Source: a virus. Taken from it: 64,000 nucleotides of DNA. The DNA lies in IMG/VR virus record IMGVR_UViG_3300031257_000001, positions 1 through 64,000 of that record; one strand, 5' to 3'. Each line of letters starts with the position of its first letter. The stretch's first letter is position 1. The notes under the pieces are model-generated. The model made no database searches, was not told where the DNA came from, and saw only the letters and a list, made by a program, of their open reading frames with translations. Shown piece after piece: positions 2,221-14,974 of this stretch. The position numbers and the translations under genes were made by a program.

Positions 2221-2574
2221 ATGACGACAACCGAGATCACCCGCGAAGAACGAGACATCATCCGCAACGAGGAAAAGGCGCTGCGCAAGCTCAACAGCTG
2301 CCAACTTCGGATGTCGGCCAAACAGTCCGTCAGCTTGCAAGATAGCAGCAGGATGACTCGCCCCAGCCTCATCCTACACATCCTCCGCAACAAGTTCGGC
2401 GCCGGCGCTGTCGAGGCTGCCTACAGGAAGTTCACCCCGCAAGAGATGGCTTTCCGCGCCGACAATGGCGACTGGAAGCGCCGGATCGTCAAGACTGAGA
2501 GCGCTTTCGACCGACTGGCCGACAAGCTCAATGACGACGTTCGTGAGTGGCACGCCCGCGACGCAGAGTGGTGA
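2221..2574 (+). CDS. Hypothetical early protein
   Basis: GGAGATCAGCC-ATG downstream of P2. Confidence 0.75.
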   Translation: MTTTEITREERDIIRNEEKALRKLNSCQLRMSAKQSVSLQDSSRMTRPSLILHILRNKFGAGAVEAAYRKFTPQEMAFRADNGDWKRRIVKTESAFDRLADKLNDDVREWHARDAEW

Positions 2575-2667
2575 GAACATCGGTTCCAGCCTCGCCCGGA
2601 CCTCGCAGGAGGCCGGGAACGAGGCATTAGAAGGGCCCGGCGAGGGGCCACAACCTGGAGATCGGCC

Positions 2668-3270
2668 ATGCCAATTGAACGACACCAGATCGCCACGACC
2701 GACCCGCAGACCATCGAACGATTCGCCAAGGGCGGGAACGCCATCATCACCGTCGTGTCCATGCGCTCCGGGAGCCGGATGACCTACCGCGTGGCCAAGC
2801 TGGATCGAATCTTCGCCATCAAGGTGCTCAGCGGCCCTGACAACAGCGACCCGAAGCTGTACCAGTACATCGGCAAGGCGTACCTGGACAGACAGGATCG
2901 TTTCGTCCACGGAGGTCCCAAGGCGAGGGCCGGCGTTGACGCACCGAGCGTTCAACTGTTCACGTGGTTCTGGCGGAATCTTCATGCGGCGCTCCGCGGG
3001 ACCTCCAACACGCTCGACCAGTGCGAGGTTTGGCACGAGGGGCGTTGTGGCAAGTGCGGGCACCGCCTCACGGTCCCTGAGAGCCTTGCCACAGGACTGG
3101 GGCCAGAGTGTTCCAAGGTGCTTGGCGTGGTCCGTCCCAGGGTAGCGTCCAGGCGGAACGCCAAGCGTGGCAAGGTCGCACAGCCTCGTGTCACGACGGC
3201 CGACGATCGGCACCTTGGTCTTGACGACTCAGAGCATGAGATGCAACGGATTGAAGCGGAGGGCGACTGA
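2668..3270 (+). CDS. DUF6011-like zinc-finger protein
   Basis: CGKCGHRLTVPESLATGLGPEC; RBS GGAGATCGGCC-ATG. Confidence 0.75.
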   Translation: MPIERHQIATTDPQTIERFAKGGNAIITVVSMRSGSRMTYRVAKLDRIFAIKVLSGPDNSDPKLYQYIGKAYLDRQDRFVHGGPKARAGVDAPSVQLFTWFWRNLHAALRGTSNTLDQCEVWHEGRCGKCGHRLTVPESLATGLGPECSKVLGVVRPRVASRRNAKRGKVAQPRVTTADDRHLGLDDSEHEMQRIEAEGD

Positions 3271-3466
3271 GCCCAGACCATCCGCGACGAAACCAACAAG
3301 ATGGCAGCACAAGCGGCCATGGAGGACGGCCCCGGCTTGCTCGTGGCGTTGCGTCAGCGGTTCGGCACCTGATTCATTAAGGGGTGGGGAGGATCGGTAG
3401 AGTGACGCCGGACACCACCGCAATGATGAAGGCGACCAACCAGACTAGCGAATCCTGTGTGGCGAC

Positions 3467-4570
3467 GTGAAGTTGGATGAGCTCAGAGCGCGGTTTCAGG
3501 GGCTGCCAAAGGAGCCCGCCCGACCTCCGGCGGTGACTGGGTCAGAATCTGTTGGTTTGGAGGCGTTCATGTTTCCGGATCCGGTTGACAGTGGGTTGAT
3601 TCGGGTCACAACATCACTTGAATCCCTCCGGAGGGCGACTGAAACGGGCGTCACACCTATCGAATGGTGCCGTGCCTTCGAGATGGCAGGATGGTCGGCT
3701 GATTCCACGATCCGTGATGTGAAGCAAGATTGGGACATGTTCACAGATGAGACCCACATCGGGGTCACGGTCGGCGCTCCCGGGGTGGATTCATACACAT
3801 GTCGAGTCTCCATCTCGGGGCACGGATTGGTTGACGCATCTGGCGTGATCGTGTTCGGTCTCCCGCCGATCTCAGCGATTGGCATGGAATTGGGGAAAGA
3901 TGTGACGGGACGATCCACGTTCCGTCCGGCGGCGGCACGGCCCCGGGCGAGGATTGAGGCGGAGGCAGAACCAGCGGTGGTGGCCTTGGGTGAAGAGCCA
4001 CCGAGGGGGAAGCTGCTAGCAGGGCGACACTTCATTATCACCGGCGTGCTGTCTCGCAAGCATGACGAGGTGTCCGCGGATCTCGTGTCCATGGGAGCCG
4101 GCGTGCACCAGAGCGTGCCAGCGGCTGTCAGGGCGGCAGTTTCCAAGTTGTGGGTCAATGTGGTCGCTGGCGACAGGCCAGGTTCCAAGCTCAAGGAAGC
4201 ACGGACGGCCGGGTTGAAGATCATCACAGAGGATGGGCTTCAGGCTGAGATCGACAAGGCCATGGCGGGGCGAGGATTGAGGACACTGGAAGGGCTCGCG
4301 CTTCACGAGAGGGTCGGATTGAAGGAGCACGCCGAAGCCATCTGCCGTGCCATCGTCCAAGAAGCTGTTGCCACCCGTGGCTGGACGGAGGGCCACGTTG
4401 AAGGGCGTATCGTGGACTCCACAGCATCGCTTGTCAGGATCATGATTGAGGAGCGAAGCGTCCAAGCGTATTGCATCGCGCAAATTCCACCTGGCGTTGT
4501 CGCCTCCAGCGCCACGATCCACGTGGAGATCCCACGTTTCCCTGACAAGGTTGAAAGTTGTGAAGCTTGA
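3467..4570 (+). CDS. Protein containing a LigA-type BRCT domain
   Basis: LAGRHFIITGVLSR...VVAGDRPGSKLKEARTAGLKIITEDGL matches the BRCT of NAD-dependent ligases; no ligase core. Confidence 0.7.
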   Translation: MKLDELRARFQGLPKEPARPPAVTGSESVGLEAFMFPDPVDSGLIRVTTSLESLRRATETGVTPIEWCRAFEMAGWSADSTIRDVKQDWDMFTDETHIGVTVGAPGVDSYTCRVSISGHGLVDASGVIVFGLPPISAIGMELGKDVTGRSTFRPAAARPRARIEAEAEPAVVALGEEPPRGKLLAGRHFIITGVLSRKHDEVSADLVSMGAGVHQSVPAAVRAAVSKLWVNVVAGDRPGSKLKEARTAGLKIITEDGLQAEIDKAMAGRGLRTLEGLALHERVGLKEHAEAICRAIVQEAVATRGWTEGHVEGRIVDSTASLVRIMIEERSVQAYCIAQIPPGVVASSATIHVEIPRFPDKVESCEA

Positions 4571-4892
4571 TGAGATCAGAGCGAGACTTCGGGCTGGCGG
4601 CGACATCCGCACCAACACATCAGTTTGCCACGAGGTGCGCGTGATTGACCTGTCCATACCCGACTCCAGGCTTGCTATCAAGAACATGCTAGAGCAGAGT
4701 CTTGACATGCTAGGATGGGAGGATCCAGATGTGGTGGAGATGCCAGAACCTTGGCAAAGCGGGAAGCTCAGTTGGTGTGTGGAATATGGTGATGCGCAAA
4801 AGGGGCCTCGGGAACGCACACAGTTGAAAGCGGTTCGCATCCCCGGCGATGACATGATGGAGTTCCACATCACGAGAGGTGAAGGACTGTGA
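4560..4892 (+). CDS. Hypothetical protein
   Basis: Overlaps the previous stop; N-terminus KLDEIRARL resembles KLDELRARF of the upstream gene. Confidence 0.55.
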   Translation: MKLDEIRARLRAGGDIRTNTSVCHEVRVIDLSIPDSRLAIKNMLEQSLDMLGWEDPDVVEMPEPWQSGKLSWCVEYGDAQKGPRERTQLKAVRIPGDDMMEFHITRGEGL

Positions 4893-12189: not shown

Positions 12190-12255
12190 GAATTCAGCGC
12201 GGGGTTGGCCGATTCAGTAAGGGGAATCAAGAAACAACAACCAGGAGATCAGCAA

Positions 12256-12984
12256 ATGGCTGCAAGAAAAGTGGAGAGTAAAAAGCAGAGAAGCGTGGAT
12301 GTGGTGATCACCCCAGTGATCACGCATGAGTTCGACTTGACGTTGGTCGGCACCAGCATCCTCGTGGTCAATTCGATGGTCGGAAAGCTTGCTGAGGAGC
12401 TGCGCCGGTCGCGATTCGGGACTGCCAAACCCAAGAAGCACGCTGACGAGGCTTCGTACAATCGTGAGTGCCGTGAGCGCTTCATGGCAGCGCGGTATCG
12501 TCTCCAGAGCGGTCAGGACGGGTTCCCGGCGGTCACCATCAAATACGCACTCGTGGATGAGTGTACGTTCCTGGATGGTGTGGAGAAAACCAAGGTGCGG
12601 GCCGGCCTCACCGTCAACGGAGGTGAGTTCTTGTGCCCCATCTTCCACGACGCAGAAGAGCCCACGATGCGTGAGGATGTCGTCCGTGTGGGTGGTCGAG
12701 CGGGCCGTGGCTCCGGGACTGCTTCGCTGGCCTATCGGCCCGAGTATCGCAACTGGCGCATCCCGGTCCGTGTCACCTACGATCCGACCCTCGTGACGCC
12801 ACAACAGATCGTTGCGTTGGCCAGCCGCGCCGGCTTCCACCAGGGCATCGGCGAATGGCGCAAGCCCAAGGGCGGCGAGTGGGGCCGCTTCAGGGTTGAA
12901 GAGGGCGTGTCCATCCCTGCCAACCTGTTTCCCAAGACCAAGGGTTCCAAGCCTAGCAAGGCTCGGCGCGGGAAGGCAGCGTGA
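12256..12984 (+). CDS. Solitary Cas7/Csm3-like RAMP protein (candidate RNA-guided effector)
   Basis: RAMP motifs in order: beta1 FDLTLVGTSILVVN; GFPAVTIKYAL (cf. IPGSSxKGxL); thumb REDVVRVG...SLAYRPEY; G-rich loop GIGEWRKPKGGEWGRF; RBS GGAGATCAGCAA-ATG. Confidence 0.75.
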   Translation: MAARKVESKKQRSVDVVITPVITHEFDLTLVGTSILVVNSMVGKLAEELRRSRFGTAKPKKHADEASYNRECRERFMAARYRLQSGQDGFPAVTIKYALVDECTFLDGVEKTKVRAGLTVNGGEFLCPIFHDAEEPTMREDVVRVGGRAGRGSGTASLAYRPEYRNWRIPVRVTYDPTLVTPQQIVALASRAGFHQGIGEWRKPKGGEWGRFRVEEGVSIPANLFPKTKGSKPSKARRGKAA

Positions 12985-13478
12985 GTCGCTTCAGGTGGAT
13001 AACGGCGCGCTTCAAGGGCCGAGCCGATGCGCAGAAGGTCGGTGAGGCCCTGGAGGCCATCGAGCGCCGTGACGGCGACCTGTCCCCGGCCGCCATCGTT
13101 GAAGCGGCGAGGGATCCGAGGTCACCACTCCACCCGTGCTTCACTTGGGCAGACGATGCAGCAGCAGAGAAGCACAGGGAGACCGAGGCCCGTGCCGTCG
13201 TTCGTTCTTGCCGCATCGTGGTCAGAATCAAAGGAGGTGGAAAGAAGACACGCCGCAAGTGGATCAGCGTCAGAATTGACACAGGCGAGGAGCGCCCACG
13301 TCGTGGGTACGTTTCCATCACCAAAGTCCGCAGCGGTGAATTGGCAGACGAGATCATGGCCGAAGCAGCGCAAGGACTTCGCCAATGGGCTGGGCGCTAC
13401 AGCGAGCTGCGAGGGCGGCTCCCCGGGTTGTTCCAGGCCATTGACGAGGTGCTGGCCGAGTACACGAAGGCCGCATGA
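12981..13478 (+). CDS. Phage accessory protein coupled to the RAMP gene
   Basis: GTGA overlap; LSPAAIVEAARDPRSPLHPCFTWADDAAAEKHR...AR motif; its stop lies directly before the array. Confidence 0.75.
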   Translation: MSRFRWITARFKGRADAQKVGEALEAIERRDGDLSPAAIVEAARDPRSPLHPCFTWADDAAAEKHRETEARAVVRSCRIVVRIKGGGKKTRRKWISVRIDTGEERPRRGYVSITKVRSGELADEIMAEAAQGLRQWAGRYSELRGRLPGLFQAIDEVLAEYTKAA

Positions 13479-13505
13479 GGGCACGAGTTGCCCACGGAAC
13501 GGATC

Positions 13506-13935
13506 GGCTGCTACGGACAAGGATGGTACGCAGTTGAGGAGGCTGGTCGCGATTTGATCTGAGAGGGCTGGTCGTGTGTGGCTTGGCTGCTACGGACAAG
13601 GCTGGTCTTCTACTGAGGAGAATAGCCGTGATTGGAGGTCAGAGGACTGGTCGTGGGCTGTTTGGCTGCTCTGGAATTGTCTGGTGGTGTTGTGTCCAGA
13701 ATGGCATCGTTGTCGTGTGAACTGTGTAGTTTGGAATTGATCGGAGCGCGCCGGTGAGGCTGCTTCGGAGTGGATCAGCGCGGCAAGCGTTAGCAGGGAA
13801 CAGGATAGGCTGGAAGGGAATGGTGAGGCTGCTTCGGGTTGGAACGTAGCGCCAATGGCATGGTTGGTTCCGACGTGAGATGCTTGGTTCCGACGTGACG
13901 CGAGCGGCAAGGTTGCATCTGTTCAGAGAGGCTGC
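13506..13935 (+). ncRNA. Pentamer-periodic guide-like array: (NN + nGn) units delimited by GGCTGC
   Basis: GG(C/T)TGC at 13506, 13585, 13664, 13758, 13827, 13911, 13930; spacings 79, 79, 94, 69, 84, 19 are all 5n+4; G at one phase in 72 of 80 pentamers and never A; RNA status is inferred. Confidence 0.85.
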
Positions 13936-13956: not shown

Positions 13957-14000
13957 GCGGGTGATGGTCGCACGGTGGGTTCGACTCCCGCCGGCCCGCC
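13957..14000 (+). ncRNA. tRNA-like mini-domain (acceptor-like stem plus T-arm, no anticodon arm)
   Basis: GCGGGT(13957-62)/GCCCGC(13994-99); CGGTGGG-TTCGACT-CCCGCCG; bulge GATGGTCGCA with a D-loop-like GG. Confidence 0.6.
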
Positions 14001-14001
14001 T

Positions 14002-14274
14002 ATGGCACGTAGCCTCAAGCCGGGAACCCGCAACTACAACTTCATGGACATGGCGGGCGTCCGCATCGGGCGCGTGGTGGTCACGTCCGAGGCATCCAGC
14101 GCTTGCGGGAATGCCCGGTGGCACTGCCAGTGTGACTGCGGCGGGACCTTCATCGACCAGGGCATCCACCTCCGCTCCGTCATGAAGTCGGAGCGCCTGG
14201 GCAAGCGCAAGTATCCTTTCAGCTGTCCCGAGTGCCGTCCCAAACGGAAGGGCACCTATCAGAGGCGCACATGA
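14002..14274 (+). CDS. Small Zn-binding protein resembling the WxCxCDCG module of HNH/AP2 endonucleases
   Basis: IGRVVV...RWHCQCDCG...SCPEC; no nuclease domain. Confidence 0.6.
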   Translation: MARSLKPGTRNYNFMDMAGVRIGRVVVTSEASSACGNARWHCQCDCGGTFIDQGIHLRSVMKSERLGKRKYPFSCPECRPKRKGTYQRRT

Positions 14275-14558
14275 TCAGACAGGCTATCAGGAACTTGGCG
14301 TCACGCGCCATCGTGGGTTGGGTGAAGTGGCAGCATCCGGAGATGTACCAGCGCGTTGCCGAAGGGCGCCGGCGCGGCCCGGTGATTCACTCGTGTGACG
14401 AGATGTCCACGAAGTATGAGCTGCCGCGCGGATGGCACATGCGTCACCGTCGGAGCGGTCCCGGCTATGAGGTCCAAGTCAATTCAGCGAGTGGCGGACT
14501 GGTGTACAGCGGGTGCGGATGTCCGTGTTGTTTCGACCTGTGGTTGGAGGCGCTGTGA
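14271..14558 (+). CDS. Hypothetical protein
   Basis: ATGA coupling. Confidence 0.55.
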   Translation: MIRQAIRNLASRAIVGWVKWQHPEMYQRVAEGRRRGPVIHSCDEMSTKYELPRGWHMRHRRSGPGYEVQVNSASGGLVYSGCGCPCCFDLWLEAL

Positions 14559-14974
14559 GCGAGCACATCTGCTCATTCTGTGGCAAGGATAGCACCCAGG
14601 CTGGTCGCATGGTCCGAGGCATGGGCAACGTCTGCATCTGTGACGGGTGTGTCAGCGAGGCCAGGGAGATCACCGAGCCCGAGCCCGAGGGCGGAGCCAT
14701 CCTTCAGCGGACCCTCATCAACACCCTCACCAAGGGAATCGGACTGGCGACGTCACAGGCCGCGGAGGATGCGCGCGCGTGGGCAGAGATCACGGCCAAG
14801 TTGGGCGCCGTCCTGGTGATGGCACACCAAGGCGTTGACCACACGCGAATCCGGGCGATGGTCAAGGAGATCAGTGATCTGGAGTACAACTTGACTTTGG
14901 ATTGCAAGGCAACCGGGGACACACTGGAGTTGTGGCCACATGAAGATGAGGACAGCGATGATTCAGAAGGCTGA
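14555..14974 (+). CDS. Protein with ClpX-type C4 zinc-binding domain
   Basis: CSFCGKDSTQAGRMVRGMGNVCICDGCV; RBS GGAGG; no AAA+ domain. Confidence 0.75.
   Translation: MSEHICSFCGKDSTQAGRMVRGMGNVCICDGCVSEAREITEPEPEGGAILQRTLINTLTKGIGLATSQAAEDARAWAEITAKLGAVLVMAHQGVDHTRIRAMVKEISDLEYNLTLDCKATGDTLELWPHEDEDSDDSEG

Follow-up and report, generated by a model that had tools for sequence, protein, structure and literature searches.

We conclude that positions 13664-13757 of the + strand very probably represent a single guide of a VIPR system, which reads box II of a tyrosine integrase gene and so probably serves to silence the integrase of a rival element. The integrase observation itself is confirmed and statistically solid. 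The window analysed here, a stretch of 64,000 nucleotides, belongs to the 104-kb genome of a phage from salt-marsh metagenomes, whose portal protein is closest to those of ~100-kb Rhizobium/Rhodobacter phages (32-33% identity).

VIPR, a DNA silencer that resembles CRISPR, was first reported in 2026 (10.64898/2026.04.26.720920, 10.64898/2026.04.26.720927, 10.64898/2026.10.15.759431). It comprises a minimal Cas7-like protein, Vipr, an accessory vap gene and vrRNAs in which GGY and NN alternate (10.64898/2026.04.26.720920). Each vrRNA consists of 9-16 tandem pentamers that combine a conserved GGY (or related consensus) with a hypervariable NN (VIPR preprints), and natural variants including NNNGG, YNNNG and NNNNG are named in the accessible part of the preprint text. 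Vipr protomers sequester the triplet and present the NN, every third base of the dsDNA target being flipped out (10.64898/2026.04.26.720927). Experiments have established NN specificity, the one-base skip at the wobble position, and dsDNA targeting on both strands (10.64898/2026.04.26.720920; structure in 10.64898/2026.04.26.720927), and the outcome is transcriptional silencing that involves no PAM (VIPR preprints). Tails and array layouts vary between the seven types (VIPR preprints), and natural targets were counted at an NN match of at least 80% (VIPR preprint). The VIPR of Escherichia phage SUSP1 immobilises a satellite by silencing its excision recombinase, with a guide that reads the codons beside the catalytic serine (10.64898/2026.10.15.759431).

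The vipr gene of the phage under study (12256-12984, + strand, within an ORF that opens at 12205) encodes a minimal Cas7-like RAMP of 242 aa from its ATG. The AF2 model (pLDDT 79, pTM 0.73), together with structural matches and profile comparison, agrees with what is published for Vipr, a small Cas7-related RAMP that has a single RRM, a G-loop and a thumb. Its top 24 structural matches are all Csm3, Cmr4, type VII Cas7 or gRAMP proteins (Z 8.1-10.8; Foldseek probability 1.00), and its C-terminus carries the glycine-rich motif G-x-G-E-W-R...G-x-W-G-x-F. The family profile (A1) matches the Vipr gene of SUSP1, agp039, with an E value of 3.5e-14 across 183 of 217 positions, and agp039 is accompanied by a small downstream gene and by GGY-NN runs on both sides, as published. 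Since the profile matches agp039, the surroundings of which agree with the published description, the locus is, as judged from sequence, a VIPR system. Homologues of Vipr are also present in 25 mycobacteriophage and five Gordonia phage records at 26-28% identity (E 1e-8 to 1e-11), where they are annotated as hypothetical proteins, examples being gene 51 of Mycobacterium phage Saal and proteins of the Gordonia phages Ecliptus, Pipp and UmaThurman.

The adjacent vap (Vipr-accessory) gene (12981-13478, + strand) overlaps the vipr stop and encodes 165 aa that match phrog_15946; among the related loci, 88 ORFs lying directly 3' of vipr are homologues. Its AF2 model is of high quality (pLDDT 95) and contains an N-terminal domain that weakly resembles a winged helix (Z 5.8-6.5), with no match to a Pfam family or in Foldseek. 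The vap profile (A3) found no match in the SUSP1 genome, vap1 included. Both vipr and vap are intact and conserved, and the pair constitutes a minimal VIPR locus, as none of ten neighbouring ORFs scanned against Pfam and PHROGs matched a Cas family. Downstream of the array, positions 14002-14274 encode a small Cys-rich protein with a weak match to an HNH-endonuclease PHROG, and the product of positions 14513-14974 contains a C4 zinc finger of the ClpX type (PF06689, E 5e-12).

The array was found in the ~520 nt that separate the vap stop (13478) from the following start (14002) and contain no credible ORF. Its lag-5 same-base autocorrelation is 0.36, compared to ~0.25 at other lags, and it is the sole period-5 tract in the 104-kb genome. 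Following a leader (13480-13505, + strand), which sequence comparison showed to be common to the closest relative, L004, five units begin at a GGCTGCT delimiter at 13506, 13585, 13664, 13758 and 13827, the array ending with GGCTGCAGC at 13931. Each unit is composed of 14-17 pentamers of the form xGx-NN. The central G occurs in 67 of the 77 pentamers (87%) and the NN composition is near uniform; the triplet flanks are weakly biased, with 49% G at position 1 and 44% pyrimidines at position 3. This five-unit layout corresponds to the degenerate 'NNNNG' form that the preprint names, as far as its accessible text goes. The 7-nt delimiter, accompanied by a one-base phase shift, is the only element that recurs between units, and there is no ~40-nt tail per unit. 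Repeat finders applied to the array returned a 79-nt tandem pair and the short delimiter, with no CRISPR-type repeats. The text of the VIPR preprints makes no mention of a GGCTGCT delimiter or of a tRNA-like end; a promoter and terminator scan of the region yielded nothing useful, and blastn of the array against isolated phages gave no match. Two other identities for the tract were considered and rejected. A CRISPR-Cas array would present direct repeats with contiguous spacers, whereas here the variable bases are interspersed with the repeat every 5 nt, and a TRAP-like ring protein or CsrA/Hfq-type sponge acting on GG every 5 nt was dropped because the neighbouring gene folds as Cas7 and the VIPR papers fit.

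The array is closed by a tRNA-like minihelix of acceptor/T-arm type (13957-14000, + strand). As read from the sequence and its fold, a GCGGG/CCCGC stem stacks with a 7-bp stem that is capped by the loop TTCGACT. The energy of the fold does not stand out (z -1.4), ARAGORN and Rfam (E<=10) identified no known tRNA or RNA over the array region, and the element is absent from L004. The minihelix lies just ahead of the ATG at 14002 and may act as an RNase P/Z processing signal.

The region 13670-13763, when read in fives, resolves into pentamers of the form x-NN-xG, and the eighteen dinucleotides of unit 3 (13664-13757, + strand) are CT AT CT GG TG CC AT AT TG TG AC GT TT AT TC GC CC GA, running from 13671/72 to 13756/57. 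Their reverse complement, with one base skipped per codon, reads S-G-A-[DE]-[IM]-[KN]-T-V-[QH]-[QH]-[IM]-[IM]-G-[HQ]-P-[SR]-[IM], so that both the dinucleotides (at 13671-13757) and the decode given in the initial annotation proved correct as listed. The GA that encodes the first serine lies within GGTGAGGCTGCT, which also closes unit 4, and the CT that encodes the last codon is directly 3' of the GGCTGCT delimiter. Since the recurring delimiter is in contact with the dinucleotide at either end, 16 NN (13677-13752) can safely be assigned to the guide core. The antisense reading corresponds to box II in the form G-A-D-I-K-T-V-Q-Q-[IM]-[IM]-G-H-P-S-I, that is, to the motif G-x-[DS]-x-x-x-[VI]-Q-x-x-[LM]-G-H-x-[SD]-x located between H-x-x-R and the catalytic Tyr. 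The possibility that the third pentamer base carries the wobble was tried and rejected: it fits the sense units (GAG for E, TTG for L), but in unit 3 it yields Q where His is expected, and in the published structure the NN alone pair.

An HMM of tyrosine integrases was constructed as an independent yardstick. Unrelated integrases were selected solely by an HDLRHTF codon pattern, independently of the array, which retrieved 118 IMG/VR loci, of which 102 ORFs of 250-520 aa were kept and aligned. The resulting consensus contains the expected boxes, '..llTGlRrgEllgLrw..' and '..HDLRHTFA...agvdlktvqelLGHssiatTlrYahl'. Decoded units were scored without gaps, taking the best residue permitted by the two bases at each step, and controls were scored identically. 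All 17 positions of antisense unit 3 align without gaps to 'agvdlktvqelLGHssi' (profile positions 331-347) with a score of 29.7 bits (z 9.6). Shuffles of dinucleotide order gave a mean of 12.1 bits (sd 1.8), and not one of 3000 shuffles or 3000 uniform random strings reached 29.7 bits, the control maximum being 24.2. The assignment of unit 3 to tyrosine-integrase box II in the initial annotation is thus upheld against an independent profile. Two outcomes had been named there in advance as counting against this assignment: random strings scoring equally well, which did not occur, and the lack of a near-perfect natural match, where the best found stands at 81% NN.

The remaining units were subjected to the same scoring. 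Unit 2 (13585-13663, + strand) reads in the sense direction as L-L-T-G-[IM]-R-[FL]-G-[DE]-L-R-A-[FL], which is box I with its catalytic Arg, and scores 27.2 bits (z 7.8), a value reached by none of 6000 controls. Unit 1 (13506-13584, + strand) is a tandem paralogue of unit 2, 79 nt long and 73% identical to it; its sense reading, ..G-L-R-[FL]-S-[DE]-L.., falls on box I at the same place as that of unit 2 (HMM 228-237) and scores 16.2 bits (z 2.2). The differences between the two units behave like protein variation, TC becoming GG where integrases have S or G, and CT becoming AT where they have L, M or I. Unit 3 differs in sequence from units 1 and 2 yet indicates the same gene family, and for this reason it had rightly been regarded as independent support. 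Unit 4 (13758-13826, + strand), read antisense, is similar to a helix in the core-binding domain of integrases, 'vL..L..aLn.A' (17.9 bits, z 3.6), and it matches 18/22 NN in frame in one integrase, L174, a finding that is weaker and post hoc; unit 4 therefore probably reads that helix. Unit 5 (13827-13930, + strand) gave no signal against the integrase HMM. It contains a 20-nt tandem duplication at 13860-13898 (ATGGTTGGTTCCGACGTGA / ATGCTTGGTTCCGACGTGA) in which the pentamer phase is kept and four NN are repeated.

Several comparisons place these scores in context. The four remaining phases and the opposite orientations of the window gave nothing comparable with the same HMM. Among 466 unit-orientations of related arrays the mean was 10.4 bits and the maximum 22.0, making units 2 and 3 far outliers, and a Gumbel tail extrapolated from the shuffles (our own calculation) puts unit 3 at ~2e-6 and unit 2 at ~3e-5. 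In the DNA of the 102 integrase genes, NN matches of at least 70% arose solely with a one-base skip and all in frame 0, the skip falling on the wobble base and the matches occurring on either strand. Unit 3 matched seven of the 102 genes at this level with skip 1 and none with skips 0, 2 or 3. Units 1 and 2 are read in sense and units 3 and 4 in antisense. The initial annotation had taken the presence of both guide orientations as an argument for dsDNA rather than mRNA as the target, and this is in accord with the activity on both strands of dsDNA demonstrated in 10.64898/2026.04.26.720920 and 10.64898/2026.04.26.720927.

A search of the complete 104-kb genome with PF00589 identified no integrase, extending to the whole phage what had been stated for the window. 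As the phage lacks an integrase, an external target is a fair inference, and the satellite, prophage or integrative element initially proposed as the probable bearer of the target is likewise a fair one, which parallels the SUSP1 VIPR. The guides did not match their own genome better than shuffles did at skips 0, 1 or 3, resembling the absence of self-targeting reported in the VIPR preprint.

Searches for the target itself were performed at several levels of stringency. The exact gapped pattern over 14 codons of unit 2 or unit 3 had no match in IMG/VR, and the exact pattern over 10 codons of unit 3 had none in 596 Gb of genomes. When up to three mismatches were allowed, there was no match in 401 Alphaproteobacteria or in five Rhizobiales genomes. 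The central eight codons of unit 3, searched exactly in IMG/VR, yielded 14 loci of which none was an integrase, approximately what 16 specified bases would retrieve at random. The 5' half of unit 3, G-A-D-I-K-T-V-Q, searched exactly in the same collection, yielded 33 loci, and 19 of these are tyrosine integrases matched at box II and in frame, each with LRH upstream and a Tyr downstream. Comparable results were obtained for the 8-codon core of unit 2, T-G-[IM]-R-[FL]-G-[DE]-L, for which ~22 of 30 exactly matching IMG/VR loci lie at integrase box I.

The best whole-guide match of unit 3 is 26/32 NN (81%), a value conditional on the exact half, and was obtained in L255, L269 and L270; it lies just at the published threshold for natural targets of at least 80% NN. 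In the L255 integrase, unit 2 additionally matches 22/28 (79%) at box I, LLQTGLRSGELRGL, which answers the question, raised at the outset, of whether unit 3 hits the same gene as unit 1 or unit 2: the L255 gene is matched by units 3 and 2. None of 80 relatives of the L255 integrase matched better than L255 itself, and an NN match of at least 90% was not found in any collection searched (IMG/VR, genomes, Alphaproteobacteria and L255 relatives). Probably neither the host nor its mobile elements are represented in these collections.

The guide could also be a genuine VIPR guide whose targets are tyrosine recombinases other than those of a rival element, namely housekeeping or other enzymes of the host (XerC/XerD, integron or ICE integrases), a reading to which we assign a small likelihood. 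Boxes I and II are common to the whole tyrosine-recombinase superfamily, the decode matched a family profile rather than a single gene, and the searches of 596 Gb of genomes and 401 Alphaproteobacteria did not disclose a specific target, all of which speak for this reading. The exact G-A-D-I-K-T-V-Q, however, occurs in integrases on phage contigs, the integrase with the best double match, L255, comes from a phage, and every natural VIPR target published is a mobile element. At the box II site, Xer proteins usually have G-A-D-L-R-V-V-Q, which would cost several NN mismatches. We accordingly retain the integrase of a rival element as the likely target of unit 3.

Related loci were examined for the conservation of this arrangement, 80 metagenome loci being taken from 294 relatives found. 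A vipr-vap pair with a same-strand period-5 array is present in three IMG/VR loci and in most of the 80 metagenome loci. Most of the latter have clean GGY-NN pentamers, with a 4-nt GGC-A-GGC step that shifts the phase by one every 10-12 repeats; this punctuation is seen in L002, L024, L029 and most of L004-L083, and it fits the 'staggered arrays with 1-nt overlap' named in the accessible part of the preprint. By far the longest VIPR array of the 80 loci is that of L011 (contig Ga0335085_10000239, 171 kb), where ~1.4 kb of pentamers flanks vipr on both sides (2538-3279 and 4111-4871). In L004 the Vipr is 86% identical and the array NN are entirely different, and so guide content must turn over much faster than the protein. 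The L004 array gave no integrase signal with the HMM, from which it follows that integrase targeting is a property of the present array and not of the clade. The phage recurs in other salt-marsh runs, where three array polymorphisms (13626, 13634 and 13913) all fall in triplet positions and none in NN, although these are too few for statistics. A strain from another salt-marsh sample (run X5) carries one extra 79-nt unit at 13583-13674 followed by a different next unit, its contig returning from 13661 to 13583 with 7 differences; the array thus gains and loses units within the population.

These observations bear on the idea that the array is decaying or inactive, the repeat having drifted to xGx from GGY and the integrase-like strings being relics, which we consider highly improbable. 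It would account for the weak triplet consensus (G in 49% and a pyrimidine in 44% at the flanks) and for the failure to find a target of at least 90%. Nevertheless, the central G is retained in 67 of 77 pentamers, vipr and vap are intact and conserved, NNNNG vrRNAs are natural variants according to the accessible preprint text, and both the confinement of polymorphisms to triplet positions and the extra unit in one strain suggest a living array. A drifting relic, moreover, would not retain two strings at 27-30 bits. That the integrase resemblance arose by chance, from a reader who tried many decodings with freedom of strand, phase and protein family and with up to three residues per two-base step, we consider extremely improbable, since the scores of units 3 and 2 were attained by none of 6000 controls (Gumbel ~2e-6 and ~3e-5, respectively), these two independent units match both signature boxes of one family while other phases and orientations gave nothing comparable, and the decoding rule was established independently by experiment (10.64898/2026.04.26.720920).

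Our interpretation of unit 3 as a VIPR guide against the integrase of a rival element is supported, as was the earlier one, because it coincides with the experimentally established VIPR mechanism. By analogy with that mechanism, the + strand array would be transcribed and copies of Vipr would line up along it, one per pentamer, each hiding the semi-constant xGx triplet and presenting the two variable bases. On dsDNA the resulting filament would pair each NN with two target bases and flip out every third, generating a gapped R-loop that would block transcription, probably with the assistance of the vap product. The binding of Vipr to the present array is an assumption on our part, as the triplet is far more degenerate than the tested GGY and the ~40-nt tails are missing. 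The 16-17 NN of unit 3 are predicted to pair with the coding strand of a tyrosine recombinase over box II, just before the catalytic Tyr, with the skips placed on the wobble positions. In the salt-marsh host, the likely purpose would be to shut off the integrase carried by a prophage, satellite or other integrative element residing there. A guide that reads nothing but the amino-acid-determining bases of catalytic motifs would leave its target little escape through synonymous mutation.

As a tentative extension, which we regard as possible without considering it likely, the guides may be consensus-like and copied from no single gene, the array acting as a pan-family silencer of tyrosine integrases and its tRNA-like end recruiting RNase P/Z. 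If so, three or four mismatch-tolerant guides would block the excision of any resident prophage or satellite, and the recruitment of RNase P/Z would represent a host-dependent processing of a VIPR array, so far undescribed.

VIPR is a months-old class of RNA-guided DNA binders, and the sole natural recombinase target studied to date is the serine recombinase of E. coli satellites. The present locus suggests that the strategy of guiding against catalytic codons extends to tyrosine integrases, and to an unrelated, uncultured salt-marsh phage. A natural array with a very degenerate repeat, in which one G per pentamer is conserved, may also help to define the minimal sequence requirement of Vipr and to design compact programmable silencers. 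The 'code' is not new with this window, because the one-base skip rule was published in 2026. The pairing rule and the silencing of recombinases are already known; what is special here are the xGx triplet, the GGCTGCT delimiters, the tRNA-like end and the tyrosine-recombinase guides, of which there are three or four.

The closest characterised system is the VIPR of SUSP1, a member of type II, the SUSP1 / P. fulva clade (Vipr agp039, vap1 agp038 and four vrRNAs), with which the present locus shares a phage-borne Cas7-like protein, a downstream accessory gene and a same-strand array of NN pentamers, as well as the one-base skip on the wobble, guides on both strands and a guide directed against catalytic-core codons of the recombinase of another mobile element. 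The two differ in that only the central G of the triplet is kept here (xGx) as opposed to GGY in SUSP1, and in that units of 14-17 NN abut at a GGCTGCT delimiter, whereas each SUSP1 vrRNA carries a ~40-nt pseudoknot tail. The present array is closed by a single tRNA-like hairpin, unlike that of SUSP1, and its vap has no sequence match to SUSP1 vap1. Several converging guides appear to address a tyrosine recombinase in place of the serine recombinase targeted in SUSP1. With the 'staggered' arrays and NNNNG vrRNAs of VIPR, as given in the methods and the legends of figs S17-S18, the array has in common its abutting units, one-base shift and degenerate repeat. Beyond VIPR, the best structural match to Vipr is Csm3/Cmr4 (Cas7) of type III CRISPR-Cas (9g9a_D; Z 10.8, rmsd 4.7 over 163 residues), which likewise assembles into a polymer on its guide RNA and interrupts the duplex of guide and target at regular intervals. 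VIPR has a period of 5 with two paired bases as against 6 with five in type III systems, and the published target of VIPR is dsDNA whereas that of type III is RNA.
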